DNA from: an uncultured Gemmatimonadaceae bacterium
GTDB taxonomy: Bacteria; Gemmatimonadota; Gemmatimonadetes; Gemmatimonadales; Gemmatimonadaceae
Assembly: GCA_963829055.1 (NCBI GenBank)
Contig: CAWHHI010000020.1
Span: 928,001-992,000, forward strand
DNA: 64,000 bases
Direction: 5' to 3'
Made by a program: the position numbers and the translations under genes. Positions within the stretch are counted from its first letter, which is position 1. Each line of letters starts with the position of its first letter. A model generated the notes under the pieces. The model saw nothing but the letters and a program-made list of their open reading frames with translations. It was not told the origin of the DNA and searched no databases. This document shows, piece by piece, positions 407 through 62,873 of the stretch.

Positions 407-1298
407 TCATCGGCGCGCCGTTCGGCCGCCTAACGACGCCAGCAGACTCGGTAACACGTCGTGGATGGTCGTGGCGCCGGCTAACGCGCGATCACCTTCC
501 GGACGCACTCGGCCCGACTCGAAGCACGCGTACAGCTCGGCCACGGTTTCAGCGAACGGCTGCGGCAGGCCCGCTTGCATGAGCGCGCCTGCCCGCGCTG
601 CTGCCGGCACGTCGACCACCTGAAGCTGTTTGCCGAGCGCGGAACCTAACGCCAACGCGAGGTCGCGGGATGAGTAGGAGGGGCCTGTGAGGTCGATGAT
701 TTCGCTAGTGGGCGGAGGCGACACCAGCAGCGAGGCCGCGACGCGACCGACATCGCGCGTCGCGATGGTCGGGAACGGCGCGTCCGCCGACGCCATGAAG
801 TTCGGGTAGATCCCCGCCGCGGTCGCCGGCCCGAGCATCGCGCCGACGTTTTCCTGAAACCAGCACGCCCGGATGATCGACAGCGTCGTGCCGGTCGTCC
901 GGAGCGCGCGCTCGAGATAGTGCAGATCCTTCGCCGGGCCGTTGCCGTCCGCGAGCGACGCCGCCACCGCGGACATGCACGACGACATGCGGCACTCGGC
1001 TCGCCCGCACCGCCGTCGCCATCGCGTCCGCCATCGCGCGCCGAGCGCCGTGAAAGTCCGCGGCGAAGGGATCTTCCGGGAGGAGCGCGAAGAATCCGTC
1101 CACTCCGTGGAGCGTGCGGGTCAGGAACTCGGCATCGTCGAGCGATCCGTACGCGGCTTCGCCCCCTCCGATGGCCCAGGCCACACCACGCTCCGCGTCC
1201 CGTGCGATCCCGGTCACGCGGTGCTGCTGCGCGAGCAGCTCGCGGGCAACGACAGACCCAACCCGTCCGGTGACACCGGCGACGACGTACGTGGCCAT
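407..1298 (-). CDS. NmrA-like atypical SDR / NAD(P)H-binding protein (frameshift near 985)
   Basis: N-terminal VVAGVTGRVGS Rossmann motif in ORF 705-1298. The C-terminal half (WFQEN, IATRDVGRVAA, LTGP) is in ORF 407-988. Confidence 0.85.
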
Positions 1299-1321
1299 AA
1301 TACCCCTCAGTATTCCTCGAC

Positions 1322-1906
1322 CTACTTGCCGCTAGGTGGCGAGCGTTCGGCGGGTGGCGTGCTACAGCGGACATCGGCCGGCGGATACGTTGACGCTATC
1401 TCGAATGGTGCGTTCTCGTCAACATCCGGCCACGGAAGCCCTCGGCCGGTCGATGCGATCGCCGTGAGCATGCGGCCGTGGCGTCCCAGCGCCTCGTCGG
1501 CGAGCGCGACCAGCTTCTCGTTAGGCCTGACGGATGGGCTCACCTGGCGTAGTGCCACGGCAATCTCGTGCTCGCTCGCGCCGGGATTCCGCGCGCACGC
1601 CACGATGAATGCCGCGGCCGGCGAGCGCCCCATGCCCGCTCGGCAATGAATGAGGAGTGGCGCGTCCTGGCGCCAGTCGGCGGCGAAGGCGAGCAGCTCT
1701 GCCACGTGCGCGCTCGAGGGGATGACGTGACCGTCAGCAGCCGAGTGGCGATCGTGAAACCGGAGCTTGAGATGCCGCTCGGCGTAGCGAGGACCCGCGT
1801 CCGGAAAGGCGAACTCGGGATCGAGCATGCTGATGATGCGTTCAGGCTTCCGCGCCGCGACGAGCGCCGTGACCTGCGACAGCGGGCAGACGAGAATGGC
1901 CGTCAT
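1322..1906 (-). CDS. Protein tyrosine / dual-specificity phosphatase-like protein
   Basis: CX5R motif LIHCRAGMGRS plus RPNEKLV. Confidence 0.85.
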   Translation of the reverse strand: MTAILVCPLSQVTALVAARKPERIISMLDPEFAFPDAGPRYAERHLKLRFHDRHSAADGHVIPSSAHVAELLAFAADWRQDAPLLIHCRAGMGRSPAAAFIVACARNPGASEHEIAVALRQVSPSVRPNEKLVALADEALGRHGRMLTAIASTGRGLPWPDVDENAPFEIASTYPPADVRCSTPPAERSPPSGK

Positions 1907-1978
1907 CTAGAGGCGGGACAGCCGCCACCACGCGATGAGCAGCGCAATGCCGATGCCTATCACCTTCACGGTGTGCAT
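1907..1978 (-). CDS. 23-aa hydrophobic micro-ORF, possibly an internally deleted membrane protein gene
   Basis: MHTVKVIGIGIALLIAWWRLSRL*, preceded by the SD-like GAGGGAG. Its stop abuts the phosphatase ATG. Confidence 0.45.
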   Translation of the reverse strand: MHTVKVIGIGIALLIAWWRLSRL

Positions 1979-1995
1979 GTGTGTTGGCTCCCTCG

Positions 1996-2517
1996 TTAGG
2001 TGCCCGGCGGTAGCGCGCCCTGGTCGCCGCGTCCGGTCGGGGCTTCGAGTGATTCCTTCGCCTCAGCCGCCGCGAGCGCACGCTCCGCCAACGCGAGCTC
2101 GAGCTCACCGGCAAACTCGCGACCCAGTTCCAGATCCGCGCCGCGCAGTCGAAGCGCCAACTCCGCGGGGTGATCCAGGCTGAGGCCCGCCGCGCCGGCC
2201 ACTTCCTCGAACGCGCGGAGGTCTGCTGCCGTCAGCACCAGGTGCATGACCGGCGGCCAGCCCCATCGGCGCCGTACGGTCGCGCCGGCTACGGCGCTCA
2301 ACGGCACCGTTACCTCGCGCACTGGCTCCACTTCCTTGTCGGTCCGGATCTGCCAGCCGACGCGCTCGGTGGACCGCGCCACGCGCCACTGGATGTGGAG
2401 CTCGTCACCGTCCAGCCGGAGCAATCCGTGCACCGTCTCCTTCGTCGACGTGATCTCGAAACCCACCACGTCGTGCTTGCGGTGGATCACGAACGGAACG
2501 GCAGCGGAGTGCGGCAT
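1996..2517 (-). CDS. Hypothetical protein
   Basis: 173-aa ORF with normal composition, co-directional with neighbours. Confidence 0.7.
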   Translation of the reverse strand: MPHSAAVPFVIHRKHDVVGFEITSTKETVHGLLRLDGDELHIQWRVARSTERVGWQIRTDKEVEPVREVTVPLSAVAGATVRRRWGWPPVMHLVLTAADLRAFEEVAGAAGLSLDHPAELALRLRGADLELGREFAGELELALAERALAAAEAKESLEAPTGRGDQGALPPGT

Positions 2518-2638
2518 GGTGCGTTAGGCTTTCAGAAGCTACTTGCTGCGTGCTGCGTGCACGAGGCACAGTGCTGGTTGCACGCAGCTCATGTTTCGTC
2601 TTGCCGCGACGCGGTGAACGCCGAATGTAGATTCTCCT

Positions 2639-3721
2639 GTGCGACGCGGCAATCGTGATCGTGGTTCACTCTCACCTGTCCAGTCGATCGTGACCCCCGG
2701 CATACCCAATCGACGAGGCGCGCTCACGACGCTTCTCGCGACTGTCCTTGCGACGATCGCGTGCGCCGGGAATGCCTCACCGCCGACCGGTAGCAACCCG
2801 CCCGGCGGCACGGGATCGACCATTCCGCCTGGCCCGTACGTCGTGGGGAAGTCGTACACTGGACGCAACGGCTACATCGAGTACATCGCGGGCAACGCGC
2901 CGCTCATCTACACGGCGCCACACGGCGGCGATCTACTGCCGGCCGAGATTCCCGATCGTACTGCGGCACGATGCGGTGGTTCGGCGACGACGTCCACCGA
3001 TCTCAATACCGAGGACCTCGTGCGCGCCATGCAGCAGCGCCATTTCGCGCGTTATGGTACGTACCCGCACATCATCATCAACCACCTCGCGCGGCGGAAG
3101 CTCGACGCGAATCGCCTCGAGCCGGAAGCCGCGTGCGGCAACGCCGCGGCGGCAATCGCGCTCGTCGAGTGGCACGCGTTCATCGACAGCGCGAAGGCGG
3201 CGGTCCTGCGTACGAGCCCGCGTGGCTGGTACATGGACATGCACGGCCACGGCCACGCGAAGCAGCGTCTCGAGCTCGGCTACCTGCTCACGAGTGGTCA
3301 GCTCGGGCTCTCCGATGCAGCGCTCGATGGCAATCGTGCGTTCCAGGATACCGCGAGCATGCGCACGGTGTCCGAAGCGTCGCCGCTCACGTTCTCCGCC
3401 CTGCTGCGCGGCGCGACGAGTCTCGGCGCCCTGTACGCCGCGAACGGATTCCCAGCGGTGCCGAGTGCGTCGGACCCGAGCCCGGGGGCCGACGATTACT
3501 TGAGCGGTGGGGACGACACGCGCCGCCACGCCTGCGGCGCGGAGGCGAACACGTTAGGCGGCGTGACCAACGGAATGATCTGCGGCGTGCAGATCGAGGC
3601 GAACTTGACCGGCGTGCGTGACACACAGGCGAACCGTGACCGCTTCGGCGACGCTACGGCCGCGGTGCTTGGACAGTACCTGTCGATGCACTGGGGAATG
3701 AGCTTCGGACCAACACGCTAG
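2639..3721 (+). CDS. Lipoprotein, N-formylglutamate amidohydrolase-like Zn hydrolase (start uncertain)
   Basis: Lipobox-like LATIAC, plus TAPHGG, RRKLDANR and DMHGHGH motifs. Confidence 0.7.
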   Translation: MRRGNRDRGSLSPVQSIVTPGIPNRRGALTTLLATVLATIACAGNASPPTGSNPPGGTGSTIPPGPYVVGKSYTGRNGYIEYIAGNAPLIYTAPHGGDLLPAEIPDRTAARCGGSATTSTDLNTEDLVRAMQQRHFARYGTYPHIIINHLARRKLDANRLEPEAACGNAAAAIALVEWHAFIDSAKAAVLRTSPRGWYMDMHGHGHAKQRLELGYLLTSGQLGLSDAALDGNRAFQDTASMRTVSEASPLTFSALLRGATSLGALYAANGFPAVPSASDPSPGADDYLSGGDDTRRHACGAEANTLGGVTNGMICGVQIEANLTGVRDTQANRDRFGDATAAVLGQYLSMHWGMSFGPTR

Positions 3722-3898
3722 CGTTGTCATTCCGAGCGGAAGTCGTCATTCCGAGCGGAGCGCGAGCGCGGAGTCGAGGAATCGTGCGATTCCCGGTAGA
3801 GGGCCCTCTACCGGGACGAGTCTCGATTCCTCGACTGCGGCCGTCGGCCTTCGCTCGCGAGCTGACAGCCGAGCTGGCGCTCGCTCGGAATGACAACG
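3722..3898. repeat. REP-like palindromic element, copy 1
   Basis: Termini TGTCATTCCGAGCG...CGCTCGGAATGACA, inner arms GTCGAGGAATC/GATTCCTCGAC, central palindrome CCCGGTAGAGGGCCCTCTACCGGG. Lies between convergent genes; second copy at 59610. Confidence 0.85.
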
Positions 3899-4705
3899 TC
3901 AGCGCGGCTTCTCCGCGAGGTATGCATAACGCGACAGCCGGTGCTCGACGGACAGCGTGTGCACGCACAGCAGAAAGCGCTGGAGCCCATCGAAGTTTGA
4001 TTCGCCTTCTCTCGCCACGAGTGCGTCCCGCTGCCGCGCGCGCGCGTCGTGCCATCGACGCGCGACGTCCGCGGCGTTCTGCGTGACGTCCTCGACGCTC
4101 AGCACCGCGAAGCCCGCCGCCGCGAGCAGCCGCTCATTCTCGCCCGGAGGCACGAAGAGGTAGTACCCGATGGAACTGCGCGTCGCGATCTCCTCGTGCG
4201 ACACCGTCCCCGTGATGACCATCGCGTCCGTGAACAGCACGCGCCCGCCCGGTCGCAGCACGCGAAACCAGTCGCGCAGCACCGTCGCCCGATCGCGGAT
4301 GTGGCACATGGCGTCATTCGACACTACCGCGTCGAACCGACCATCCGCGAACGGCAGCGGTTGACTCGCATCCACGGCCTGAAACTCCACACGATCAGCG
4401 ACGCCGCGCGCCTCGGCCAGCGCCGTCGCGTTGCGCACCCCGTGCGCGTTGAGGTCCACACCCGTTAGGCGGCAGCCGCGCGCGAGCGCGAGGTACACGG
4501 CGGGCCCGCCGGATCCGCTCCCGACCTCGAGCACGTCGGAGCTCGCGTCGATCGCGAGCTGGTCCGCGAACCGGAGCCACTCGGACGCCGTGAGCCAGCT
4601 ACTCTGGCCCATGTCCTCCCCGTACGTCTCGTGGCGCACGGTCGCCTCGGCGACGCTCGCGAAGTCGCCGTAGACGTGATCGTAGAGACGAACCTCACTG
4701 CTCAT
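3899..4705 (-). CDS. Class I SAM-dependent methyltransferase
   Basis: VLEVGSGSGG motif I, LPFADGRFDAV, RVLRPGGR. Confidence 0.9.
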   Translation of the reverse strand: MSSEVRLYDHVYGDFASVAEATVRHETYGEDMGQSSWLTASEWLRFADQLAIDASSDVLEVGSGSGGPAVYLALARGCRLTGVDLNAHGVRNATALAEARGVADRVEFQAVDASQPLPFADGRFDAVVSNDAMCHIRDRATVLRDWFRVLRPGGRVLFTDAMVITGTVSHEEIATRSSIGYYLFVPPGENERLLAAAGFAVLSVEDVTQNAADVARRWHDARARQRDALVAREGESNFDGLQRFLLCVHTLSVEHRLSRYAYLAEKPR

Positions 4706-4777
4706 GTTGTCTCCCGTCTGGTGGTGTGTGCTTGCTGCCTGTTCCTTGCACGTCGCATGGTGGCTGCAGCAGACCGC

Positions 4778-5182
4778 TCAGCCAGGCGTGAACGTGTAGC
4801 ACCACGCTTCCCCTTCGAGCACCGTCTCTCCCGTCTGCCGCGTGACGACGATCCGAAGTTGAGTGACCGGCTTCGTGGCGTGAACGCTGACGACTTCCGC
4901 CTCCGCCGTGATCGTGTCGTCGATGTACACGGGCGCCGTGAACTTCCACTGCTGGCTCAGGAACACCGAGCCCGGACCGGGCAGGTCCATCGCCACGAGT
5001 GCGTGCAACAGCCCAGTCGTTAGGCCTCCCTGCACCACGAGCGCGCCGAAGCGCGTGCGTGCCGCGAAGTCGGCGTCGAAGTGCAGCGGGTTGTAGTCGC
5101 CGGTGAGCGCGGCGAACGTCGCGACGTGGTGCGCCGTGAGCGTCAACGACCGGCGCGCGGTCTGGCCAACCTGAATCGCCAT
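4778..5182 (-). CDS. MaoC family dehydratase
   Basis: FAALTGDYNPLH and LPGPGSVFLSQQWKFTAPV hotdog-fold motifs. Confidence 0.9.
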   Translation of the reverse strand: MAIQVGQTARRSLTLTAHHVATFAALTGDYNPLHFDADFAARTRFGALVVQGGLTTGLLHALVAMDLPGPGSVFLSQQWKFTAPVYIDDTITAEAEVVSVHATKPVTQLRIVVTRQTGETVLEGEAWCYTFTPG

Positions 5183-9899: not shown

Positions 9900-12555
9900 T
9901 CAATCCGTTCGCAATGCCACGAGCGGATCGACATGCATCGCCCGGCGCGCGGGAACGACAGTGGCGATGATTCCGATCAGCACGATGCACGCGGACGCCG
10001 CGGCGTACACGGCCGTATCACCGGGGGTCACCCCGAAGAGCATTGATGCGACCACGCGTGATAGTACCGCCGCACTCGTTAGGCCGATCGCGAGTCCGGT
10101 CAGCATCAGTGCTGCCGCGTTGCGGGCGAGCAGATGCAGCACGTCGCGACGCTGGGCGCCCATCGCCACGCGGATGCCGATTTCCTTCGTTCGTTGTGTC
10201 ACGGAGTAGGCCATCACGCCGTACAGTCCGACGGCCGCCAGAAACAGCGCCACGCTCGCCAGAACGGTCAGCAGGCTAGCTGCCGTCTTCTGCTCATAGA
10301 GCGGCGCGGCGGTGAATTCGCCCAGGGAAAGGGCATTGAACACCGGCACCGCCGGCTCGAGGGCCCGCACCTCTCGGCGGATCGCGGCCACGGCTTCATC
10401 CACCGAGCCGCTCGTGCGGACGAGGAACGTGAATGGGAACTCGGGCCGGTAGACCTGCCGCATTGGAACGTAGAAATAGGGTGCCGGTCGTTCGGTGAGC
10501 CGATACGTCTTGATGTCCGGCACGACGCCGATGATGGTGAATGGCTTTCCCCACCCGTCCACCTGTCGACCGATCACGGAACCACCGTGGAGGAATCGCC
10601 TCACGAACTCCTCGTTCACGATCATCACCGGCGCGTGCGCACTGTCGTCCTGGATTGTGAAGTCGCGACCTTCACGCATTGGCACCCTCAGCACATCGAA
10701 GTACCCAGGGGCAACGACGGCGCGGTAGATCTTCATGTTCTCGCTCGGGTCGGGAGCGTAGCCCTCGATCCGCAGGTCCTCCCACGATCCTGCCCCGACG
10801 GTGAGCGGTACGTAGTCCGTGTAGCTGACAGCCGTGACGCCTGGCTGACGCTCAAGTCGCTCGCGCACGGCCCGCATGAACGCGTCGCCCTGTGGTCCGT
10901 CATAGCCTGCCGCGGACAGGCTGACGGCCCCGATCGCGACGCCACGCGAGTCGAATCCGGGCTGCACCGCGCGAACGACGAAAAAGCTCTTCATGAACAA
11001 TCCGGCTCCCACGAGTGCCACGACGGTGAGGGCCATCTCACCTCGCCACGAGCAATCCCCGGAGTCGCCCGGACCGTGCGGACCCCGTCATGCCTCGGCT
11101 CCCTGCGCCGAGGGCGTCGCCGAGCTGTTCGCGGGCGACGTACCAGGCCGGTGCAATTCCCGCCAGAATGGTGACCGCGCACGCCAGGCCGGCCGTGAAG
11201 GCGAGCACGCGTGCATCGAGGTGAGGCCGCAGCAGCGTGGGTACGGCCAGGTCCGGCACGAAAAATCGCAACGAGCCGCTGAGCCAATGAGCCACGAGCA
11301 GCCCGAGTGCCGAGCCGGCAGTCGTGAGTACGGCGGATTCCGTCAACAGCTGCCTAACGAGCCGAGCGCGGGGGGCGCCCAGCGCGAGGCGTAGACTCAT
11401 CTCGCGTCGGCGATTCATGGCGCGGGCCAACAAGAGGTTGGCCATGTTGGCGCAGACGATGAGCAGCACGACCGCGCCGGCGCCCGTCAGCATTCCGAGC
11501 GGTGCTCTCAGCCGATCGTGGACGCCATAGTGCGATAGCGACACCGGCAGCATCGCGGCAGTCATCCCTCGATTGGTGTTCGGATGCACCTCCGCGAGGC
11601 GGGACACGGCCGATGCGAGATCCGCGCGGGCCTGCTCGATCGTGACGCCGGCGGCGAGTCGCGCCAGGACGCGGAACATTCGCGTCTTCCGATCCTTGAG
11701 GAATGATCCGCCGTTCGGGTCCAGATGGCTGATCATCGTCGCCGGCACCCAGAGCTCGAACTCGCTACCCGGCATCGACCCGTGAAACCCCCGGGGAGCG
11801 ACGCCAATGATGGTGAAAGGGTAGCGGTTGATGCGTATCGGAGACCCGATGACTGCAGGGTCGCTTTGGTAACGACCGGCCCACAGCGCGTAGCTGATGA
11901 CCGCGACCGCGGGTGAGCCCGCCGCGTCTCCGCGCTCGCCTGCCGAGAAGAAGCGACCGCGCAGAGGTTGGATGCGCAGCACGTCGAAGAAGTTGCCCGA
12001 GACGAGCTCGCCCCAGCGACGCTCGATGGCCCCATCGCTGCCTAACGCTAACCCGGTCGGCAATGAGACCGTCATGGACTCGACGGTTCGCAACCGATTG
12101 CGGAGGTCGCGGAAGTCCGGGTACGACGTCGGCGTCCATTCGCTCGACGGCGTGACGCCCTCTATCGCCACGACGCGGGCGGGGTCGGCGGCGCCTGGCA
12201 ACGCGTCCAGCAGCACGGCTCGCCGCCAGCTGAACACCGTCGCATTGGCCGCGATCCCGATCGCCAGTGTGAGGATGGCCGCCGAGGCGAGTGCCGGGCT
12301 CCGTCGGAGCTGGCGCAGCGCGTAGCGGACGTCCATGGCGAACGAGTCGATCGTCGGCCACTGCCAGACTTCGCGGCTCGTCTCCTCGATTGCCGTCACG
12401 TTGCCGAACTTCCGGCGCGCAGCCGCCGTGGCGTCCACGCGTGACATGCCGCTAGCCATGAGCGACTCGACCGTCTCCTCGAGGTGGGCACTGATCTCAG
12501 CCGAGAGATCGTCGTGCTGGCGACGGCGCGTGAACAGCTGGGCAACCCAGTTCAT
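9900..12555 (-). CDS. Duplicated orphan ABC-type permease (MacB/FtsX x2, ADOP-like); frameshift near 11037
   Basis: DVRYALRQLRRSP, CANMANLLLAR...RRREMSLRLALGA, GLYGVMAYSVTQRTKEIGIRVAMGA, PARRAMHVDPLVALR. Confidence 0.9.
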
Positions 12556-14280: not shown

Positions 14281-17266
14281 ATGACCACTGCCGCCCGCGC
14301 CTGCCCGTCCTGCCATACTCCGCTTCCGGACGAAGCGCATTTCTGCCTGCACTGCGGTACGGCGACGCCGACCGAGCCGGGCGTTCCGGCTCGCACGGCG
14401 GCGACCGACGTGAGCGAGATCGTCCGGGTGCGGAAGGCGCTCGCCGGCCGAGGCTACGCGATCGAGCGCGTACTCGGCGAAGGCGGTATGGCGACCGTCT
14501 ACCTGGCCACCGACGTGAAGCACCGCCGCCACGTCGCGGTCAAGGTGATGCGTCCCGAGCTGGCCGCGACGTTAGGCGCGGAGCGGTTTCTCCGCGAGGT
14601 GGAGATCGCGGCACAGCTCAGCCATCCACACGTCCTGCCCGTGCACGACTCGGGAGAATCGGACGGCGTGCTGTTCTACGTCATGCCGTACGTGGAGGGC
14701 GAGTCGCTGCACGAGCGAATCAAGCGTGAGACGCAGTTGCCGGTGGAAGAAGCACTCCGCATCGCGCGCGAGGTTGGTGAGGCGCTCGCGTATGCCCATG
14801 GCAAGAAGATCGTCCATCGCGATATCAAGCCGGCCAACATCATGCTCTCGGCCGGCCACGCGCTCGTCGCGGATTTCGGGATCGCGCGAGCCGTAGGCGG
14901 CGGGGCGGCGATCACACAGACCGGGTTCGCCGTCGGCACCCCGCAGTATATGAGTCCCGAGCAGGCCAGCGGCTCGGCCATGGTCGACGGGCGGAGCGAC
15001 GTGTTCGCGTTAGGCTGCGTCGTGTACGAGATGCTGGCCGGCGAGCCGCCATTCACCGGGCCCAACGCGCAGGCTATCGTCACTCGCAGCCTGACCGAGG
15101 CGCCGCGCTCTCTCACGGCCACGCGCGAGGGCATCTCGCCGGCGATCGAAGCGGTGGTCACTCGCGCGCTGACGAAGAACCCTGCCGACCGCTGGCAGAC
15201 CGCAGCAGAGTTCGCCAAGGCGTTAGGCGGGGCCGAGGATCAGCTGCGGCTCGGTCCCATCTCGGGCGCACGGACGCCGGCGCCCATGGCGGTCGCGGGA
15301 TCGGGGCCGGCGGCGGCGACGGTCTGGACGACGTTCGGCATCGCCGGCGTGATGGCGTTGGGTCTCATCTTCGGTCTGGTGCGGCGCTGGGGGCTTCCCG
15401 TCTGGGCGCTCGGCGTCGCGGTGCTCTTCCTCGCGATCGGCGCGCTGGTGCTCGTCGTGACCGGGAAGATGGAAGGCAGAAGGACCGCGGGCGGCAGCGT
15501 CACGGGGCCCGCGGCGCTGTTCACCTGGCGGAACGCCACCCTGGGTGGCGTCGCCGCGTTAGGTCTGTGGGCCGTCCTCGCCACCGTCCTCGTGTTTCGC
15601 GGCCCGGCCAGCGCGTCGGAGCCCAGTTCGGGAGTCAGGCTCGCGGTGCTGCCGTTCGAGAACCGCGGTGCCGCGGACGACAACTACTTCGTGGACGGCG
15701 TCGCCGACCAGGTCCGCGGAAAGCTCATGGGCCTCAAGGGCTTCCAGGTCACGGCCCGCACCAGCTCCGATCAGTACAAGGCGACGAAGAAGACGCCGCA
15801 GGAGATCGGGACCGAGCTCGGTGTCGACTACCTGCTCACGTCCACCGTGTCGTGGGCGAAGGCGGCCGGCACGAAGGGCCGAGTGCAGGTGGTGCCGGAG
15901 TTGATCGACGTGAAGACGGGCGCCGGAAAGTGGCAGCAGAGCTTCGACGCCGAGCTGACGGACATCTTCCAGGTGCAGGGCGACATCGCGACGCAGGTGG
16001 CTGGCGCGCTCAACGTCGCGCTCGCGCCGGCCGAGAAGCAGGAGATCGCCGAGCGGCCGACGAAGAATCTCGCCGCGTACGACCTGTTCCTCAAAGCCAA
16101 GGCTCTGACTGGGAACGACCCGGCGACCCTCCGACAGGCCGTGGCCTACAACGAGCAGGCGGTCGCGCTCGACTCGACGTTCACGGACGCGTGGATCGGG
16201 CTGGGAGTCAACCTGTCGAACCTGTACTTCATGGGCACGCCCGACCCCGATCTCGCGACCCGCGCTCGAAGGGCGGTGGACCACGCGACGGCGCTCGCGC
16301 CGGACAAGGTCGGCACCCGTTCAGCGCGAAGCACGTACTTCAACAGCGTCGCCAACGACCTGACCGCGGCCGACGCGGAGGTCACCGAAGCGATGCGCGT
16401 GGCGCCTAACGACGCCGGCGTGCTGCGGATGGCATCGGGCATGGAGGCACGACGCGGTCGCTGGCAGGAATCGCTGGCTCACGCCGAGCAGGCCATGCGC
16501 CTCGATCCACGCTCCAGAGGGTCGAAGATCACGCTGTACGACAAGCTGGCTCCGCCTGCACAAGTTCCCGGAGGCGGTCGTGCTGGGTCGCGAGGCCATG
16601 GCCGACCGCCCGCGGGACCTCAACACGGCGAACAGCCTCGCCCTTCTGTATCTGATGCAGGGCGACCTCGCGTCCGCGCAGGCGGTGATCCGGAACGTCC
16701 CGGCCGACGTGCCACGCACCGCGGTCGCGACGTACTTCGCGATCTACCAGGATCTGTACTGGGTGCTGGAAGACGACGACCAGAAGCTCGTCATGCGCCT
16801 CGGCCCCTCGATGTTCGACAACGACCGGGCCACGTGGGCGGCGGTCCAGATGCAGATCGCGACGCTGCGTGGGGACAAGACGCGCGCACGGGCATTCGCG
16901 GACACGGCGCAGGCGGAGTTCACGAAGCAGCTGCAGCTGACGCCTAACGATCCACAGCAGCACATCTTCCGCGGGCTCGCACTGGCCACGCTGGGCCGGA
17001 AAGACGAGGCCATCGCGGAGGCGACGCGTGGGGCGAGCTTCAATCCGCTCAGCCAGGATCAGGTCAACGGCCCGTACTACCAGCACCAGCTGATGCGAGT
17101 CTACCTCCAGGCGGGGGAGAACGAGAAGGCGATCGATGTGTTGGAGGAGCTACTCAAGATCCCCTACCTGCTGACACCGGCGCGGATCCGAATCGATCCC
17201 ACCTTCGCACCGCTCAAGGGCAATCCGCGGTTCGAGAAGCTGCTCAAAGGAGCAGAAGCGTCATGA
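14281..17266 (+). CDS. Ser/Thr protein kinase with zinc ribbon, TM helices, TolB_N and TPR domains; frameshift near 16550
   Basis: CPSC..CLHCG, GEGGMATVY, HRDIKPAN, DFG, GTPQYMSPE, hydrophobic helices, LAVLPFEN, TPR tail ending PTFAPLKGNPRF. Confidence 0.9.
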
Positions 17267-17386
17267 ACAGCGAACGGCTCGAAGGGCCGTGCGCTCTGTA
17301 GCGCCGTCCGCCCTGTCCATGTCGAGTGTCCTCACTACTGCCCTGGCGGGTCGCTACCGCAAGCGCGCCGTCGACGCGGCCAACTC

Positions 17387-18448
17387 ATGAGCGACGCGAT
17401 CACCTCGTTGCGGTCGCTCGCCGCCCGCTACCTCATCGAGCGCGAGCTCGGCTCGGGCGGCATGGCGACCGTCTTCCTCGCCCAGGACCTCAAGCACAAC
17501 CGGCAGGTCGCGGTGAAGGTGCTCAAGCCGGAGTTGGCTGCATCGATAGGCGCAGAGCGCTTTCTCCGGGAGATCGAGACGACCGCGAATCTGCGTCACC
17601 CGCACATCCTGCCGCTCTACGATTCGGGCGAGGTGCGCGGCGCTCTCTACTACGTCATGCCGTTCGTGGAAGGCGAGTCACTGCGTGACCGGCTCAAGCG
17701 CGACCACCAGCTGCCCATTGAGGACGCACTCCGCTTTGCGCGCGAAGTGTCCGACGCGCTCAGCTATGCCCACGCCCGTGGCGTCGTCCACCGCGACATC
17801 AAACCGGAGAACATCCTGCTCGAGAGCGGTCACGCGGTAGTCGCGGACTTCGGGATCGCGCGGGCCGTCCGCGCAGCGGGGTCCGAGTCGCTCACCGGCG
17901 CCGGCATGAGCGTCGGGACGCCCGCCTACATGAGCCCGGAGCAGGCGGCAGGCGAAGTGGACATCGACGGGCGCAGCGACCTGTACGCGTTAGGCTGCGT
18001 GCTGTACGAGATGCTGGCCGGCCAGCCGCCGTTCACCGGGCCCACGGGGGCGTCCCTCATCAGGCAGCACATGGTCGCGGAGCCGCCGCCGATCTCCAAT
18101 CTTCGCCCCGCGGTACCCGCGCCCGTGATCGCCGCACTCGAGCGCGCGCTCGCCAAGGCTCCAGCCGACCGCTTCGCCCGTCTCACGGAATTCACCGCCG
18201 CACTGCGGCTCGCGGAAACGACGCCGGTACCATCGAGCGCCGCCGTGCCGCCCGACGTACCGTCGCACCGTCACCGACGTGTCGCAGTGATCGGTGCCAT
18301 CATCGCCATCCTGCTTGGCCTCGCGTTCGCCCTCTGGTGGCGCACGGCCGCGAGCGCGACCGGCGACGTGACGCCGCTCCGCGGAATGCCGGAGTTCGAC
18401 CGGATCGTCGCGAAGGCAGCGCGGCGCGTGGCGGAGTTCAGCGCATGA
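17387..18448 (+). CDS. Ser/Thr kinase with one TM helix and a collapsed C-terminal region
   Basis: Complete kinase motifs, a TM helix, then directly the terminal segment PLRGMPEFDRIVAKAARRVAEFSA*. Confidence 0.85.
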   Translation: MSDAITSLRSLAARYLIERELGSGGMATVFLAQDLKHNRQVAVKVLKPELAASIGAERFLREIETTANLRHPHILPLYDSGEVRGALYYVMPFVEGESLRDRLKRDHQLPIEDALRFAREVSDALSYAHARGVVHRDIKPENILLESGHAVVADFGIARAVRAAGSESLTGAGMSVGTPAYMSPEQAAGEVDIDGRSDLYALGCVLYEMLAGQPPFTGPTGASLIRQHMVAEPPPISNLRPAVPAPVIAALERALAKAPADRFARLTEFTAALRLAETTPVPSSAAVPPDVPSHRHRRVAVIGAIIAILLGLAFALWWRTAASATGDVTPLRGMPEFDRIVAKAARRVAEFSA

Positions 18449-27771: not shown

Positions 27772-28528
27772 ATGGAAGCGATGCGCGATGCCGAGCCGGG
27801 CATGTACGAGTACGAGCTGGAGGCGGCGGCGGAGTACGTGTACAAGCGCGGCGGCGCATACGGCGAGTCGTACTTCCCGCTCATCGCCGATGGGCCCAAC
27901 ATGCCGTACACACACTACCATAAGAATCGCGCGCGGCTCGAGTCGGGCCATCTCGTGCAATTCGATTGGGCGCCCGATATCGCGAACTACACGACCGACG
28001 TGACGCGCGTGTTCCCCGCGAACGGGAAGTTCACGCCGCGCCAGGGCGAGTTCTACACGATCTATCTCCGCCTGTACCAGGCCCTCATGTCGTCGATCCG
28101 CGTGCACGTGACCGCGCGCGAGATTATGGACAGCGCCGTGGTAAGAATGGATCGGATCATGGGTGCCTATCGATTCACGGATCCCGCAGATCAAGGCCAC
28201 CGCGGAGGGGTTCGTGAACCGCTATCGGCGGAATCCGAACGCGCCGGCGCGCGGCGGAGGCTCGTTAGGTCACAGCGTCGGGATGGAAGTCCACGACGTG
28301 CGGAATCCCACCCCGACGCTCGAGCCGGGCTACGTGTTCACGATCGAGCCACAGATGACCATGGAGAGTGGCGAGCTGTCGGTGCGGCTCGAGGACATGA
28401 TTCTCATTACCGAAACGGGCTATGAGAATCTCTCCGCGTTCGTGCCCATCGAAATAGTGGACATCGAGCGGCTCATGACGCAGCGCGGGCTCGGCGCATA
28501 CCGGTTGAAGGGAACGCTGGGGCGTTAG
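27772..28528 (+). pseudogene. C-terminal catalytic part of an M24 Xaa-Pro aminopeptidase; 5' truncated, frameshift near 28190
   Basis: [41 protein letters not shown]. No N-terminal domain. Confidence 0.75.
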
Positions 28529-28553
28529 GCATCCCCTCGCACCGTTGCTTCCA

Positions 28554-29651: not shown

Positions 29652-30224
29652 ATGAGTCTTCTCGGGCACGCCGATGACGCGGCCGCCATGCAGCGGCTCG
29701 CATTCGCCCTTGTCGATCGTTACCGCATCGAGCGCGAGCTCGGGGCTGGGGGCATGGCCACCGTGTACCTCGCGCACGACATTCGGCACGATCGCCCGGT
29801 CGCGATCAAGGTCCTTCATCCCGAGGTGGCCGAATCGTTAGGCCGCGAGCGATTCCTGCGCGAGATCCGCCTGGCCGCGAAGCTCACGCACCCCCACATC
29901 CTGCCGCTGCACGACTCGGGCGAGGGCGACTCGCGGCCCTATTTCGTGATGCCCGTGATCGAAGGGCAGACTCTCCGCGAGCGGCTGCAGCAGGAGGGCC
30001 AGCTGTCGGTGGAGTCGGCGGTGCGGCTCGCGTCCGAAGTGGCCGACGCACTCGACTATGCCCACCGGCGCGATGTCGTCTACCGCGACATCAAGCCGGA
30101 GAACATCCTGCTGCACGAAGGCCACGCGATCGTCGCCGACTTCGGCGTCGGTAAGGCACTGACTGCGGTTCCAGGGTCTGTTGACCCGGTCGTAGAGACC
30201 ATCGAGCTCCCGCGTGCTGCCTAA
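29652..30224 (+). pseudogene. Ser/Thr kinase truncated shortly after DFG
   Basis: DRYRIERELGAGGMATVY, YRDIKPEN, DFGVGKAL, then a stop without the GTPxYMSPE segment. Confidence 0.8.
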
Positions 30225-30296
30225 CGGCTCCAGCGGGAAGCGCTTGCGGCGGTGACTCGGGCCCGGTAGCATGGCTCGAACCCAGCAAGGCAAGCG

Positions 30297-34895: not shown

Positions 34896-37800
34896 TCAAG
34901 GCCCGAGGCGCGCGTGACGTCGCGCAGCCGCCGCCTGTTGCGCGTACGGGGCGTCGCCATGCTCCCACGCGCGCGCCACCCAGGCGTGGTGCACTGCAGC
35001 GCTATCCGCACGGCCCGCCGCGTCCCACGCCTGGGCCAGGAGCGCGTGCACCTCGGTGTGCGTCACATAATAGTTCGACGCGTCCACCTTCCCACGCAGC
35101 ACCGGCTGCAGGGCAGCGATCGCGTCGCGCGGGCGGCCACGCTCGAGCAGGACGACGGCGAGATCGTAGTTCACGCGCGTGTAGCCGGCGGGCCAGGAAA
35201 AGATCGCGGACCGAAATGCGGCCTCGGCGCCGTCCAGATCGTTTCGAGCGAGGAGTACGAGCCCATGGACGTAGCGACCGAGCCGGCGATCACGCACGTG
35301 TCCACTCTGCGCGCCCACGGCGTCGATCGTGTCCGCCAGCGCCACCACGGCCGCCGTATCCCCCGCGCTGGCAAGCGCTCGCGCCTTGTGCGTTAGGCGC
35401 CACGCCCGCTCCCGCGCCCGGCCGGACGGTGCCTCCTCCGGCGCCCGCCAGTGCGATATCGAATCGAACAGGGCGGCAGCCTCCCGGTACCGGCCAGCCT
35501 CGAACAGGATCGCCGCGAGGGGAGCGGCCGACGGCGACACGGCTCCCACGATCCCGCTGTCGAGCGGCACAGCCAGGGCGCGGTACTGTCGCGCGACGGT
35601 AGCGGCTTCCGTCAGCCGGCCCTGATAGCGAAGAGACAGGATGAGCTGCCAGAGCGCTTCGCGCTGCGCCGGTGCGTTGCCGGCTTGGAGCGCGGCACGA
35701 ACCAGTCGCTCGCCCGTCGTTAGGTCTCCGGTTCGGAGTGCGTGTGTCGACGTCCGGGTCACTGCCGCCACGGGATCCTGGTCGAGCGCGGCAATGCGCT
35801 CGGTCAATTTCGCGGCGTCCGTGAACTTCCCCGCGCGCTCGAATACATCCCAGAGCGCGATCCACGACGCGGCAATGTGGGGCTGCAGTTGCGTCCATCG
35901 CCGCGCTTCCCGCTCCGCCGCGGCGAGTGAGTCAGCCACATCGTAGGCAGCCACGATCTGGAACATTGCCGTACATGCGTTGCAGCCGCCCACGCTGTCC
36001 GCGCGCGTGAACGACAGGGAGTCCATGGCAATCACGCGCTGAAGAGGGGCGATGGCCGCCATGTACTCGCCGTCCTGAAGGCGCGCCAGACCGGCGTAGA
36101 GGTGGCCCTCTGTTTCCTGCGGGTACCGGTTCACGAGCGAATCGGCGACCACTCCCAGCTCAGGCGACGCCGCGAACCAGGCCCAGCCTGCTCGAATCGT
36201 CAACCGCTCTCGTTCCGTTGCACGTGCCGAGAGTCGCAGGGCCCGATTCAACCGGTTCATCATCGGCACGCGCAACGTCGATGTGCGACCATATTGGTAG
36301 GCCGCCATGGCAAACATGGAATCCTCTCGCACCGCCAACCCGAACAACCGTTCGGCCGTCGCAAGGTCTCCGTCCGCGAGCGACTGAAGTCCTTCGACGT
36401 AGAAGCTGTACGCCGCCACCGACCTGGTCGTGGCGCCGGCGATCGATCCCGAAGGAACAGGACTGCCGTGCGCCGCAACGAGGCGTGCCGTTCCGCTGTC
36501 CACCAGCGTGAAGAGGTCCTGCCCCTCGATCGAATGGACGCCGCTGATCGCGCCCGTCGCGAGGTCGACGCGCCGCAGATCGAGGCGAAGCATTCCCTCG
36601 GGACGCGCATACAGGATGCCGTCGATGATCTCCGTCGCCCCCGCCTGACGCGCCGCCTCCACAAAGCCCGCTGCGCCGGTGTCCGCCGGCGTTCGGAGGC
36701 GACGCAGCAGTTCCAGCATTCGCCCCGCACTGACGACCCGAAGTCCGCGCGAGCGCCCAAGGCTCGTGGCCAGAAGATCCGCGACCGGGCCGGCGAGCGC
36801 GCGCGTCGACGAGTCCGCACCGTAGCTGACGATGCGCCCCACCGCCACGACCACCGATGGCTCGTTAGGCGACAAGGTGCCGAAACGTCCCTTGAGTCCC
36901 TGCGTGGCCAGAAGCCCCGCAGCGGCGACGCCAGCCAGCGCCGGGATGAGCCATGCCCGAGTCCAGATGCGCGATGCCTGGCGAGTCGATTGGCGCGCGG
37001 CCACGCCGCTCGCGACCTCGACCGGAGCCGGCGATGGCGATGGCATCGCGCGCTCCACGGCGTCGCTCGCTGGCTCGGACTGGGGGACGACTCGCTCCAC
37101 CTCCGCCGCGACGTCCGGCGGCAGCTGATCGCCCGTTGCGATAGGCGGGGCAGCCGGCTCGGCCCGCGCGGCTCCGGGAGTGGGCCGGGTGACTTCATCA
37201 GAGTGCACGCGCAGCCGCTCGGCCAACGCGGTGACCTCCTTGTCCGGCGGAAGCTCGAGCTCCTGCTCGACGAGCAGTTCGTAGACGCGAGCGTGTCTGA
37301 TCGCGCCAGCACGATCGCCGGACGCGGTGAGCGCTTCCATGAGCCCAACCGCGACGCGGGCGTTGAGCGGCTCGAGTGCCGCGAGCCTTCGCCACCAGCC
37401 GACGGACACCGCGGCGTTCCCGCTAGCGAGCGCACTGCGTGCGAGTGACTCGACCACCCGCGCATGGTCCTGCGCAAGCACCGCGCGTTCGCGCTCGACC
37501 CACCGCGTGAATTCGTCGGCGCCGGAAACGTGGAAGCCGTCGAGGAATGGTCCAGCGTACAGCTCCGCCGCGCGTGCGTCGTTGCCGCGCGAGACCGCCG
37601 CGGCGAACTCGGTCACATCGGTCGTGACGAGCGCGGGATCAAAGCGGAGGTCCTTCGAGCCGCCGATCGCGTCTTCGGCGACCAGGTCCTTTCGCAGCGC
37701 GTAGAGCGCCTGGGAGAGCGTGCGCGATCCGCGCTCGTCGTCGGCGTCGGGCCAGAGCAGCGCGAGCACCTTGTCGCGTGACACGCCCCGCTCACCGGCG

Positions 37801-37913
37801 CGCGCGAGCAGGGCCAGGATCGCCATGCGCCTGGGCTGAGCGGCGGCCCCCGCGAGGGAGGCACCATCGCCGCCACGGACGGAGAGACAACCGAACGTCT
37901 GAATTCGGATCAC
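34896..37913 (-). CDS. SARP/BTAD-domain transcriptional regulator with TM helix and TPR tail
   Basis: IQTFGCL, SRDKVLALLWPD, LSQALYALRK, LYAGPFLDGF, LAALEPLN, a hydrophobic segment and TPR helices. GTG start inferred. Confidence 0.9.
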   Translation of the reverse strand: MIRIQTFGCLSVRGGDGASLAGAAAQPRRMAILALLARAGERGVSRDKVLALLWPDADDERGSRTLSQALYALRKDLVAEDAIGGSKDLRFDPALVTTDVTEFAAAVSRGNDARAAELYAGPFLDGFHVSGADEFTRWVERERAVLAQDHARVVESLARSALASGNAAVSVGWWRRLAALEPLNARVAVGLMEALTASGDRAGAIRHARVYELLVEQELELPPDKEVTALAERLRVHSDEVTRPTPGAARAEPAAPPIATGDQLPPDVAAEVERVVPQSEPASDAVERAMPSPSPAPVEVASGVAARQSTRQASRIWTRAWLIPALAGVAAAGLLATQGLKGRFGTLSPNEPSVVVAVGRIVSYGADSSTRALAGPVADLLATSLGRSRGLRVVSAGRMLELLRRLRTPADTGAAGFVEAARQAGATEIIDGILYARPEGMLRLDLRRVDLATGAISGVHSIEGQDLFTLVDSGTARLVAAHGSPVPSGSIAGATTRSVAAYSFYVEGLQSLADGDLATAERLFGLAVREDSMFAMAAYQYGRTSTLRVPMMNRLNRALRLSARATERERLTIRAGWAWFAASPELGVVADSLVNRYPQETEGHLYAGLARLQDGEYMAAIAPLQRVIAMDSLSFTRADSVGGCNACTAMFQIVAAYDVADSLAAAEREARRWTQLQPHIAASWIALWDVFERAGKFTDAAKLTERIAALDQDPVAAVTRTSTHALRTGDLTTGERLVRAALQAGNAPAQREALWQLILSLRYQGRLTEAATVARQYRALAVPLDSGIVGAVSPSAAPLAAILFEAGRYREAAALFDSISHWRAPEEAPSGRARERAWRLTHKARALASAGDTAAVVALADTIDAVGAQSGHVRDRRLGRYVHGLVLLARNDLDGAEAAFRSAIFSWPAGYTRVNYDLAVVLLERGRPRDAIAALQPVLRGKVDASNYYVTHTEVHALLAQAWDAAGRADSAAVHHAWVARAWEHGDAPYAQQAAAARRHARLGP

Positions 37914-38032
37914 AGCCGGCGGCCTGCCACGTGTTGTGGGCGGTGCGGCTAAGGTAGGTCGCCCCTGAGCGGGGAGCAACGGAGCGGATCGTTCGCGAGT
38001 GCGCTGCATGGCGACGGAACAATCGGCGTGCG

Positions 38033-59601: not shown

Positions 59602-59609
59602 CGCATCTC

Positions 59610-59757: not shown

Positions 59758-59765
59758 CGTTGCCA

Positions 59766-59787
59766 TCATGCTAAATTATTAGCATGA
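59766..59787. promoter_or_regulatory. Perfect AT-rich inverted repeat, candidate operator
   Basis: TCATGCTAA-ATTA-TTAGCATGA. Confidence 0.5.
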
Positions 59788-59887
59788 AACGACGCCGGGG
59801 TCAAGCATGAGATCGCACGAGACGCGCCCCGAGCTCGCCACGTTAGGCATGCCGTGCGGCCTTGGCTCGTGAACCGCCGATGCTGGA

Positions 59888-60346: not shown

Positions 60347-60434
60347 GATGGCTCCGCAGATGAGGAAACGTGTCGATCGGCTGAACTTGCCAAACCTCAT
60401 CTCGCGTTCGCGGTCACTCCGGTCGCTACGCGAC

Positions 60435-60471
60435 GGCGGCGGAATCGCTTATCGCTCGCGACTCCGCCGCC
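60435..60471. other. Intergenic GC-rich hairpin
   Basis: GGCGGCGGAATCGC...GCGACTCCGCCGCC. No U-tract, so not called a terminator. Confidence 0.35.
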
Positions 60472-60500
60472 CTGCATTGCAACCTGATACTACTGGGGTA

Positions 60501-61043
60501 CTAGAAGTTCGGCCGCGTCTCCGTGCGCCCGGTGGTCTGGCCCGCGCCGTATGTGCGCCCGCCGAGTTGCGTCAGCTCTGAGCGCAGACGCTCCGCCGAC
60601 ACATCATCCGCATCGACAGCGACGAGCACGCCACCGCGCTCGACTGTCGATCCATAGAACTCCGCTTCATCACGCGAGTATCCGGCTTTGGAAAACGCGC
60701 CAGCCAGCGCGCCAGACGTACCGCCGACGATCGCGCCGGACGCGATCGCGCCGCCCGTCGCGCCGAGTGCCGAGGCGAGCACACCAGCGGTGACGAATGG
60801 GCCGACTCCTGGAATCAGCAGCGCGGCCAGCCCGAACAGCGTGCCGACACCAGCGCCCGCGAGCGCGCCCTTGCCGACGCGCTCGCCAGTCGTGTCATCG
60901 GTTGCACGTCCCGTGACGTCGATGTCATCCGGACGTCGCGATACGATGGACATTTCGCTATCCGAGATGCCTCGGCGACGAAGCTCTGCTATCGCGCGCT
61001 CGGCCTGCGTACGGTCGTCGAAAACTGCGGTCACACGTGCCAT
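60501..61043 (-). CDS. General stress protein-like membrane protein (glycine zipper)
   Basis: VTAVFDDRTQAERAIAEL, GAGVGTLFGLAALLIPGVGP, VERGGVLVAV. Confidence 0.85.
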   Translation of the reverse strand: MARVTAVFDDRTQAERAIAELRRRGISDSEMSIVSRRPDDIDVTGRATDDTTGERVGKGALAGAGVGTLFGLAALLIPGVGPFVTAGVLASALGATGGAIASGAIVGGTSGALAGAFSKAGYSRDEAEFYGSTVERGGVLVAVDADDVSAERLRSELTQLGGRTYGAGQTTGRTETRPNF

Positions 61044-61337
61044 AGTTGCATCCTCCACCTGCTGTATGTCCCAGCGCGCCACGATTAATGGTTCTGAGAG
61101 CGAGACGATAGCAGCGATGTCCTGTGAGACGGGCACAGCCGCACCCGCGCCCACGCTCCCGGCGCGCGAAAAGCGGTTACACGAATCATGCCGACGAGGG
61201 TCGCGGAGGCCGCCAACCGACAACCACTGAGGCGGGCTATACAGGCGCGGGGATCTACGGTCCAATGACGTTAGGCAGCGCCTCCCCCGTCTACGTGGTC
61301 GCGCACTGGACTGCTGCCGCCACTCGCCGGCATATTC

Positions 61338-62873
61338 GTGGTCATGGCCTTCACCGCTCACAGCGCACGCGCGATGACAAGCCCGCGCTCCCGTCGGCGC
61401 CTCTCACGACTGCGCGCATTCGTGCCAGCGGCCGGTATCTACCTGACACACCTAACGTGTGCGACCGCCGCCCATGCGCAGGCCGCATCCGGCGCAGCTG
61501 GGACCGACTGGACCTGGAGCACACTGCGACAAACGCCCGGCGTGGATACGGCACGCGTGACGTGGCTCGAGCGACACGTCAACATTTCCGACGCGCGCGC
61601 GCTGTTCGCGATCATTGGCCAGCTGTCGAAGCCCGAGGTCGCGCAGCTCATCGTCGAACGGATGTACGGCGACGGCAGCGTCGGCGCGGATCGCGCGCTC
61701 GCCGACAGTCTCTATACGCGACCGTCGTCAGGCATCGCTGGAGCAGTGGACGTCGCGTATCTCACGACGCGTCTCCGTGAGACGGTACTGGCGCGCGCCC
61801 GCGCGGGCGGCGCGTTCGCGACCGAGTTCTCGGGCGAGCGACTCACCGTCCCGACGATCTCGAGCGCGACGCGAACGAAGCACGCTCCGCGGCTGACGCT
61901 GCGCTTCGACTTCGCGCCGGCCGAGACGTTGCTCGCGATCGTGTCCACGCCGAACATCACGGCGAACGCGGCCACGAAGCGTATCAGCACGCCGTTGTTC
62001 GATCCGCTCATCAGGCACCGGAGCCAGCCGTTCTACCCGATGCCGTGGTCACGCGAGTTGCTCGGCGCGAACCTGGCGCGTGCCGCGAGCACGGATCCCA
62101 TCGACCGGCTCTACATCTACGCGCAACCACGCGGTCTCCTGCAGTACGGTGATGTCAGCCTGCATCGTGAGCGCTATCGCGCCGTGCTGCGTGCCTTGCA
62201 GCAGAACGAGCATGCGATCCTCGCGTACGTGGCCGACACGCTGACGCCCTACGTGCCCGAGGGATTCACGATCGACCGCGCCGTGTCGATCTACTTCGCC
62301 GGCGGTGCCGACGGTTGGGCCTCGAGCGGCGCGACCGCCTTCGATCTCGAGTATTTCAAGGACGACTATCAGCGGCTGCTGAACGTGATCGTGCACGAGA
62401 CGTATCACGGGGCGCAGAGTGCGGTCGCCGCAGCGAGCTCGCCCCGCGCACGACTGGTCACCGTCCGCGACAGTGCGCTGGCTCAGGCCGCGACCACGAT
62501 CTTCCTCGAAGGGACAGCCAACTACATCGCCCCGGCGAAGCAGCGCACGCCCGCGGAGGTGCTGAGCGCGGCGCGCGAGGGAGAGCAGCTCGTATCACGC
62601 GTCTATGCGGCGACGGGCGGCACGGTGGACCGCGACGCGATGCGGCAGGCGTTGAACGCGGGCGTTGCGGGCGGTGGGCCGTTCTACTGGTTAGGCGCCA
62701 CGATGTCCAAGGCGATCGTGGATGCGTTCGGCCGGGAAACTCTCGCGAAAACTCTCCGCGGCTCGGGCGCAGACTTCGTCGCCGAGTACGTACGCGCGAC
62801 GCGCGCGCTGCCCACGGCCCCACGTTTCTTCACGCCAGAAATCACCGCGGCGATTCTGCGACTGCGCAACTGA
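61338..62873 (+). CDS. Secreted putative Zn-dependent protease (DUF5700-like); start uncertain
   Basis: HExxH motif VIVHETYH plus downstream EGTANY. Signal ending AAHA. Confidence 0.75.
   Translation: MVMAFTAHSARAMTSPRSRRRLSRLRAFVPAAGIYLTHLTCATAAHAQAASGAAGTDWTWSTLRQTPGVDTARVTWLERHVNISDARALFAIIGQLSKPEVAQLIVERMYGDGSVGADRALADSLYTRPSSGIAGAVDVAYLTTRLRETVLARARAGGAFATEFSGERLTVPTISSATRTKHAPRLTLRFDFAPAETLLAIVSTPNITANAATKRISTPLFDPLIRHRSQPFYPMPWSRELLGANLARAASTDPIDRLYIYAQPRGLLQYGDVSLHRERYRAVLRALQQNEHAILAYVADTLTPYVPEGFTIDRAVSIYFAGGADGWASSGATAFDLEYFKDDYQRLLNVIVHETYHGAQSAVAAASSPRARLVTVRDSALAQAATTIFLEGTANYIAPAKQRTPAEVLSAAREGEQLVSRVYAATGGTVDRDAMRQALNAGVAGGGPFYWLGATMSKAIVDAFGRETLAKTLRGSGADFVAEYVRATRALPTAPRFFTPEITAAILRLRN

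Follow-up and report, generated by a model that had tools for sequence, protein, structure and literature searches.

Only few hyper-abundant words are known from bacterial genomes, namely uptake sequences, HIP1, Chi and KOPS. The DNA uptake sequence (DUS) has ComP as its receptor, and dispersed sites also serve sequence-specific proteins that organise or protect the chromosome, such as MatP (acting at matS), Noc (at NBS), SlmA (at SBS) and ParB (at its half-sites). Here we describe a further word, (Y)GTTAGG(Y), exemplified by the octamer CGTTAGGC, in a 64-kb stretch of DNA from an uncultured Gemmatimonadaceae bacterium (positions 928001-992000 of contig C20 of the genome G000; hereafter the window), and we propose a small AP2-fold protein as its candidate reader. 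According to the excerpts of PMC7811141, the uptake signal sequences (USS) of Pasteurellaceae and the DUS of Neisseriaceae resemble this word in being non-palindromic and evenly spread, in arising within genes through point mutation, in numbering about one per kb over the two strands, and in being scarce in newly acquired DNA. HIP1 (GCGATCGC), as far as the excerpted PMC4390886 and PMC13756078 describe it, is likewise a hyper-abundant octamer of coding DNA that is conserved between species and patchy across the tree, and three decades on its function is still debated (PMC13756078). The outer boxes of integron attC sites (R' GTTRRRY and R'' RYYYAAC) contain the same word as the genome sites, and the candidate reader shares the three-stranded sheet and helix of the AP2/ERF and ApiAP2 domains and of the AP2-type domains of integrases and HNH endonucleases; non-integrase bacterial AP2 proteins have been predicted to be specific transcription factors (PMC4117751, excerpt). 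The word is real and belongs to no known family, departing from USS/DUS, HIP1, Chi/KOPS and attC in the properties that define each of them. Searches of the main text of open PMC and bioRxiv papers revealed no description of the word or of the candidate protein among the records listed, and the exact heptamers and octamers, searched there as whole words, returned a single unrelated paper. What is new here is a candidate reader for the word.

In the window, the hexamer GTTAGG occurs 77 times (43 on the plus and 34 on the minus strand) when an order-2 Markov model expects 4.8 copies, the heptamer CGTTAGG 71 times (41 plus, 30 minus; 2.3 expected) and CGTTAGGC 60 times (36 plus, 24 minus; 1.0 expected). 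A sequence-only reading of the window had arrived at exactly these numbers of hexamers, by orientation, and of heptamers, and a site is present at all nine positions that it gave as examples. It had also stated that most sites lie inside genes, which agrees with the 55 of 77 sites found within predicted genes (called with our own dicodon model, since the G000 assembly contains frameshifts), whereas its GC (guanine plus cytosine) content of about 69% has to be corrected to 67.1%. The comparison with Markov nulls that it proposed gives the same picture for all of G000 (7.78 Mb in 20 contigs, 86% complete, with many frameshifts): 5,004 copies of CGTTAGGC face 102 expected, 6,391 heptamers face 249, the hexamer reaches 7,103 copies, every contig carries the word at 0.75-1.22 copies per kb, and it ranks top at k = 6-8 under order 1-2 models. 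The core is preceded by C in 89% and T in 6% of cases and followed by C in 79%, T in 12% and G in 6%, and the consensus is (C>T)GTTA(G>T)G(C>T>G). The spelling CGTTAGAC, common in attC, is not enriched in G000 (24 copies).

Copies inside genes encode Leu-Gly, Pro-Asn, Leu-Thr or Val-Arg, or supply a stop. Codon-aware tests, likewise suggested by the earlier reading, revealed that rare codons are favoured precisely where they complete it: TTA is used in 1,452 of 3,365 xCG-Leu-GGY contexts versus 18 of 5,758 xCG-Leu-GCN contexts, and CCT in 832 of 1,041 xxG-Pro-AAC-G contexts versus none of 56 before AAT. The use of TTA in 67 of 279 xCG-Leu-TGY contexts identifies CGTTATGC as a true variant. Altogether 68% of all TTA codons in G000 fall in the word, as do 258 of 711 TAA and 185 of 1,435 TAG stops. 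We can rule out that the word is a base-calling artefact, a possibility raised from the window alone, because six other assemblies of the genus hold it (2,501-5,112 octamers) and the sites are at orthologous positions. Defining genomes with at least 60 sites per Mb as rich, we found that all seven genomes of the genus are rich and that, in a panel of 401 genomes of the phylum, high densities are confined to scattered genera of the order, all others staying at background, which supports the lineage-specific signal that had been suspected. In samples of 9-32 kb from word-poor genomes, a size at which sparse words are missed, we detected no alternative iterated word. Other 8-mers abundant throughout G000, such as ATTCCGAG and TGTCATCC, are REP-like (repetitive extragenic palindromic) intergenic repeats distinct from the word.

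The candidate reader is encoded outside the window, at C3:271467-271769 of G000, and was reached through a basic open reading frame (ORF) of 105 aa on a Chthoniobacterales-type contig (L534), with which tblastn returned a faint homologue in G000. The predicted product has 100 aa, an isoelectric point of 11.4 and 26 Lys/Arg residues, and no signal peptide or prepilin sequence is visible in it. A GTTAGG-NN-GTTAGG tandem with an 8-bp step occurs once in the 7.78 Mb of G000, and this single instance precedes the candidate gene by about 50 nt. Each of the seven genomes of the genus carries 2-5 copies of the word at -46 to -86 of the gene, which by eye sit just 5' of a promoter-like TTGxxx-N17/18-TATCTT element, and a site is present just 3' of a conserved CATAAT in genus g77, which belongs to another family. 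Across 31 genomes, 23 of them with at least one site, we counted 49 sites in the 300 nt 5' of the domain versus about 3.7 expected from rough genome densities, and outside the genus 27 versus 1.9; for comparison, only 104 of 5,771 genes in G000 have at least two sites in a comparable stretch. The word also reaches a second phylum. Among 38 metagenome contigs with a length of 4 kb or more, eight are unlike G000 and spell it TCGTTAGGC, with T at -2 in 91% of 84 sites. Two of these eight have cluster members named Chthoniobacterales or Verrucomicrobiota, and a homologue of 33% identity, its start preceded at 19-20 nt by a site, is encoded on two of them, a figure that is to be read knowing that these contigs were selected by the word and that the L534 match includes the upstream site.

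An AlphaFold2 model of the candidate (predicted local distance difference test score 93) comprises three strands and a helix, the three-stranded-sheet-on-helix arrangement of AP2 domains. Its best structural matches are three chains of the Toxoplasma mitoribosome (Z 6.6-7.2), which we take to be AP2-derived, and the DNA-bound AP2 domain of Plasmodium SIP2 (6sy0) aligns over 52 residues with Z 6.3 and a root-mean-square deviation of 2.2; Z values of this size are within the range reached by common folds, and Foldseek returned nothing for the model at E <= 0.001. The Pfam AP2 profile (PF00847) scored the Chthoniobacterales protein at E = 0.03 and 15 bits, below its cut-off of 33.3, and gave no match at the G000 gene. 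The family has 971 representatives at E <= 0.001, with Gemmatimonadota clusters in the ESM Atlas, and conserves Arg and aromatic residues in its strands. Unlike known AP2 proteins, the candidate is a stand-alone domain of 64 residues with Lys/Ala tails that stays below the PF00847 cut-off, and unlike regulon-type AP2 proteins it has thousands of putative sites inside genes. The gene region was found in 17 soil RNA runs from 12 studies, and near-identical contigs span the ORF in all four runs examined; these runs were selected with the candidate gene and may contain DNA.

We then asked how the gene is distributed relative to the word, scoring 15 candidates per genome in the 401-genome panel, which had been drawn before the candidate gene was found. 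In the own family, strong matches occur in 12 of 17 rich genomes versus none of 76 poor ones (G013 included); the earlier reading had suggested looking for a DNA-binding gene that tracks the word. Strong matches are likewise present in all six rich genomes of family f2, in genus g89 only in the rich genome G389, and in none of 136 genomes from other orders. Among 80 genomes picked by word count, all 30 strong matches fall in rich or intermediate genomes. In genus g29, the homologues found in poor genomes have His in place of the conserved Tyr and lack an upstream site in 10 of 10 cases; no other iterated word was detected in 69 kb of this genus, small samples being prone to miss sparse words. 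The association of gene and word has a Fisher p of 1e-11, which overstates its significance because kin are not independent. From the promoter arrays together with this co-occurrence, we consider it highly likely that the candidate protein binds the word directly. Variant or paralogous AP2-like genes, often two per genome, were noted at L669-L678 of genus g29, and weak AP2-like matches at G324:C1, G166:C4, G122:C14, G299:C28, G131 and G330, in all cases without the word upstream. Weak matches in G036, G040, G096 and G305 were rejected as out-of-frame noise.

Together with the limits just given for the fold scores, the Chthoniobacterales contigs, the RNA runs and the Fisher test, several observations weigh against the idea that this protein reads and spreads the word. 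Strong matches also occur in 31 of 160 word-poor genomes of family f2, and G358 has the canonical residues and two upstream sites at only about 35 sites per Mb; among gene-bearing genomes the density of the word varies more than 10-fold, and 8 of the 31 candidate genes lack an upstream site. Conversely, in five of the 17 rich own-family genomes (G241, G298, G402, G305 and G217, of which G305 is 100% complete) the gene was not found with three queries, all of which detected their positive controls. It was equally not found, with three queries including a broad profile and with positive controls again detected, in G036, G038 and G040 of another family, of which G036 and G040 share the G000 spelling and are 90% and 87% complete, respectively. 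A halo of raised GC around the sites, described below, lacks an explanation by binding alone.

The four richest genomes without the gene, G241, G298 and G402 (genus g46) and G305, spell the word GTTRGGC and contain 670-1,130 sites per Mb (YGTTAGGY count). In whole-genome counts, CGTTATGC reaches 13-30 copies in these four versus 583 in G000 and 708 in G014, CGTTAGGT has 24 copies in each of the three tested versus 1,540 in G014, and CGTTGGGC has 969-1,489 versus 271 in G014. This spelling without the CGTTATGC and CGTTAGGT variants in gene-less genomes suggests that a second reader is likely at work there. G241 and G298 share 11 of 18 sites at 42% four-fold divergence, and close pairs are depleted. 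A search for the second reader in these four genomes by way of tandem copies revealed no AP2-like ORF in 30 loci, and the GTTRGGC loci L073, L074, L075 and L325-L329 contained no AP2-like gene.

The arrangement of the sites in G000 provided a further line of evidence. Sites less than about 300 bp apart are under-represented, with a pair correlation that rises from 0.28 at 0-50 bp through 0.55 at 150-200 bp to about 0.9-1 past 300 bp. Where xCx-Leu-Gly would permit a site, one is present in 4% of cases if a neighbouring site is closer than 50 bp, compared with about 40% if the nearest is 400-1,200 bp away. Control hexamers have no such short-range gap. The two strands differ little (skew +0.027 in 143 windows of 50 kb) and neighbouring sites have no orientation bias at any distance, in agreement with the unpolarised signal of the sequence-only reading, which had proposed a test of skew. 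When the genome G001 was aligned with three congeners over 91-95 kb each, 54 of 58, 52 of 61 and 56 of 58 sites were kept (85-97%), at four-fold positions differing by 33-41% in the same alignments; four-fold divergence flanking the sites is not lowered (+0.003, null standard deviation 0.007). Kept sites amid undiminished flanking divergence imply that only the site itself is protected. Comparing orthologues, a check that had also been proposed, we saw sites at orthologous positions arising by substitution in conserved codons, with no indels. In genes of G000, synonymous positions have a GC content that is higher around a site, by 1.8 points at a distance of 12-25 bp and by about 2 points within 30 bp, an excess that is symmetric and gone by about 150 bp. 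This halo recurs in G001 and in other genera pooled and has no helical periodicity; neither eight unrelated control words nor shifted positions gave a comparable rise. The longest word-free gaps (48, 37 and 32 kb) coincide with nearly word-free contig-end blocks of metabolic genes, including trp and chorismate genes, at C6:6854-55038, C6:591809-623330 and C11:1-44055 (L030-L034). These blocks are probably foreign or chimeric, and the word could serve as a binning check.

We propose that the word is bound by a small cytoplasmic protein that is strongly basic and consists of one AP2-fold domain with Lys/Ala-rich tails. This protein would regulate its own gene through the tandem array just 5' of the -35/-10-like promoter and, as a nucleoid protein guided by sequence, would coat the chromosome at about one site per kb. 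If one bound site serves roughly 100-300 bp, selection, or drive for bound alleles, would fix isolated sites and ignore close seconds; the exclusion over this distance is consistent with a benefit that levels off as soon as a protein occupies a neighbouring site. That the AP2-fold protein causes the genome-wide spread of the word seems to us rather probable, and a nucleoid-coating or self-marking role is plausible without being the expectation. By comparison, the sites of MatP, Noc, SlmA and ParB number tens to hundreds, are mostly palindromic and are regionally clustered, whereas the present word has thousands of non-palindromic copies genome-wide.

The likeness to the integron core, which had been pointed out from the window, proved to be close. 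In three arrays of the word-poor relatives G025 and G027, 36 of 42 attC-like sites, recognised visually by their paired boxes and an adjacent integrase, end in CGTTAGGC; the opposite end reads TGTTAGGC or CGTTAGGC, and the variants TGTTAGGC, CGTTAGGT and CGTTATGC are also found at attC ends. Unlike attC boxes, the sites across the genome stand singly and not in pairs, lie in frame within ordinary genes and form no hairpins: site pairs 50-140 bp apart, the distance range of paired boxes, are depleted in G000 in all orientations, and 60 hairpin candidates in the whole genome are mostly chance. G000 itself encodes an integron integrase that is divergent and scores at the cut-off (265 bits), accompanied by attC-like sites scattered over about 90 kb at C20:119424-208958 (L008), isolated attC-like sites on C9 and C10, and a second intI that is an N-terminal fragment near a contig end. 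More speculatively, the specificity could have arisen on attC outer boxes, where binding of double-stranded DNA could restrain cassette excision, and might later have been extended to mark self DNA and been copied by phages. An origin in integron control is rather doubtful. Only tentatively do we put forward the widest account, in which a stand-alone AP2-fold nucleoid protein rewrote the genomes of soil bacteria in two phyla and at least two independent readers converged on the attC core; within it, that convergence would imply that the system began as cassette-recombination control and later became a self mark copied by phages.

Phages do carry the word. The tailed-phage contigs L265, L394 and L401, selected by a two-site pattern among the 124 viral loci listed, have 16-29 dispersed CGTTAGGC copies in 15-20 kb (0.8-1.9 octamers per kb), and no AP2-like gene was found in the viral loci examined. 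L394 also encodes two DNA methyltransferase-like proteins. The viral contigs L200 and L246 have same-strand clusters of CGTTAGGC (14 copies in 4 kb; a run with a 108-bp period), which are probably tandem repeats of another kind.

Several other explanations have to be weighed against a word spread by its AP2-fold reader. The earlier reading had offered three functions, of which protein binding now has circumstantial support from the promoter arrays and the co-occurrence, methylation-linked repair is not supported, and uptake meets competence genes that do not track the word. Unlikely in our view is that the AP2-fold protein binds the word but follows it, with one other factor driving the word in all rich lineages and the AP2 gene being retained wherever sites were already in place for it. 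Such a factor would account for the eight rich genomes that lack the gene and still keep their sites (as in the G241-G298 comparison), for the 31 word-poor f2 genomes that carry the gene, and for the convergence of all spellings on the attC box. However, the spelling switches exactly in the four richest gene-less genomes, which fits different readers better, and the integron integrase, rejected as driver, scores above threshold in 24 of 41 genomes, the majority of which are word-poor.

We regard it as improbable that the word is a DNA uptake sequence, recognised by the competence pilus and propagated through molecular drive, which may have been adapted to attC ends for the harvest of cassettes from soil DNA. 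The word resembles USS, as excerpted from PMC7811141, in lying about once per kb, on both strands, evenly spaced and absent from foreign-looking blocks; competence genes are present, the symmetric halo of about 100 bp in third-position GC could reflect biased conversion in short tracts, and transformation delivers cassettes to integrons (PMC8946536, excerpt). Against this, and against the idea that competence genes might track the word, the components of uptake occur in rich and poor genomes alike, judged by presence: ComEC in 55 of 55 genomes, a ComEA-type HhH protein (HhH_3) in 70 of 70, and a PilW-like minor pilin in 52 of 64. Inverted pairs of terminator type are rare, with 33 adjacent pairs closer than 50 bp among 7,103 sites, compared with 17% of H. 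influenzae USS lying within 30 bp of another in the excerpts of PMC7811141. Further differences from USS/DUS are the strong exclusion of close pairs, the presence of the word in two phyla and in the tailed phages, and a candidate reader that, unlike a pilin receptor, looks cytoplasmic.

Very improbable is a HIP1-like process, in which CCTAAC is methylated on one strand and a bias in mismatch repair adds new sites until every stretch has one. Type IIG-like enzymes methylate an adenine in non-palindromic hexamers, a target type that position 5 of this hexamer suits. G000 has one type IIG-like N6-adenine methyltransferase gene followed by an SNF2-like helicase gene (C8:73551-79061; L029:7551-13061), and Elhai's model, in the excerpt of PMC4390886, predicts saturation near one site per kb. 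Yet the enzyme (about 1,070 aa in relatives) lies among housekeeping genes, is nearly universal and single-copy in the order and occurs in 49 of 52, 15 of 15 and 6 of 7 genomes of three families regardless of the word, with no alignment column separating rich from poor genomes and with 10 changes of the rich label required by a quick tree of 33 rows, a number as low in 141 of 500 shuffles; it was found by motif search, by which others may be missed in a frameshifted assembly that is 86% complete. An order-wide single copy is in itself unusual for a restriction-type gene. Nor does the undiminished flanking divergence speak for repair, and the graded tolerance of CGTTATGC and TGTTAGGC resembles a binding profile. 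Unlike HIP1, moreover, the word is not palindromic, and for it we propose a dedicated binding protein with the word in its own promoter.

That the sites are cassette-insertion scars, a polar signal of the Chi/KOPS type or an assembly artefact, as the identity with attC boxes, the divergent intI and scattered attC-like sites on C20 and the many frameshifts of G000 might suggest, is largely refuted and most improbable, given their origin by substitution without indels, the lack of orientation bias, the skew of only +0.027, which rejects polarity with replication, and the orthologous sites in other assemblies.

Within the window, the 77 copies span positions 428..62696, about one per 830 bp. The first is CGTTAGGC at 428..435 (minus) and the last the weak-flank variant GGTTAGGC at 62689..62696 (plus); a further CGTTAGGC lies at 1519..1526 (plus). 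The stop codons that had been noticed at 1996, 28528 and 30224 all fall inside sites at predicted gene ends. The CGTTAGGT variant at 1994..2001 (plus) provides, as its reverse complement, the TAA of the predicted gene 1996-2517 (minus), CGTTAGGC at 28523..28530 (plus) supplies the TAG of 28163-28528 (plus), and CGTTAGGC at 30219..30226 (minus), reading GCCTAACG on the plus strand, supplies the TAA of 29652-30224 (plus). Two plus-strand copies of CGTTAGGC encode Ala-Leu-Gly in Ser/Thr kinase genes, at 15008..15015 (GCG TTA GGC, gene 14281-16947) and, again with the rare TTA codon, at 17988..17995 (gene 17387-18448). These two kinases (14281-18448, plus), a TPR protein (34896-38009, minus) and an ADOP-family permease at 9900-12555 (minus) are typical of the lineage; the permease is split into two ORFs, likely by an assembly frameshift. 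An Rfam scan of the window at gathering thresholds gave 0 matches.

Taken together, a word of HIP1-like abundance is paired here with a named candidate reader of 11 kDa that can be directly expressed and tested. If the binding is true, it would point to a sequence-specific factor for integron attC ends, where the excerpted integron account names SSB and RecA and no sequence-specific attC-end factor (PMC8946536), and the word would provide a host marker for phage contigs. It would also reveal a new bacterial way to mark the own chromosome and a function for stand-alone AP2 domains, and the protein would represent a new class, a sequence-specific nucleoid-type protein that reshapes codon use in abundant soil lineages.

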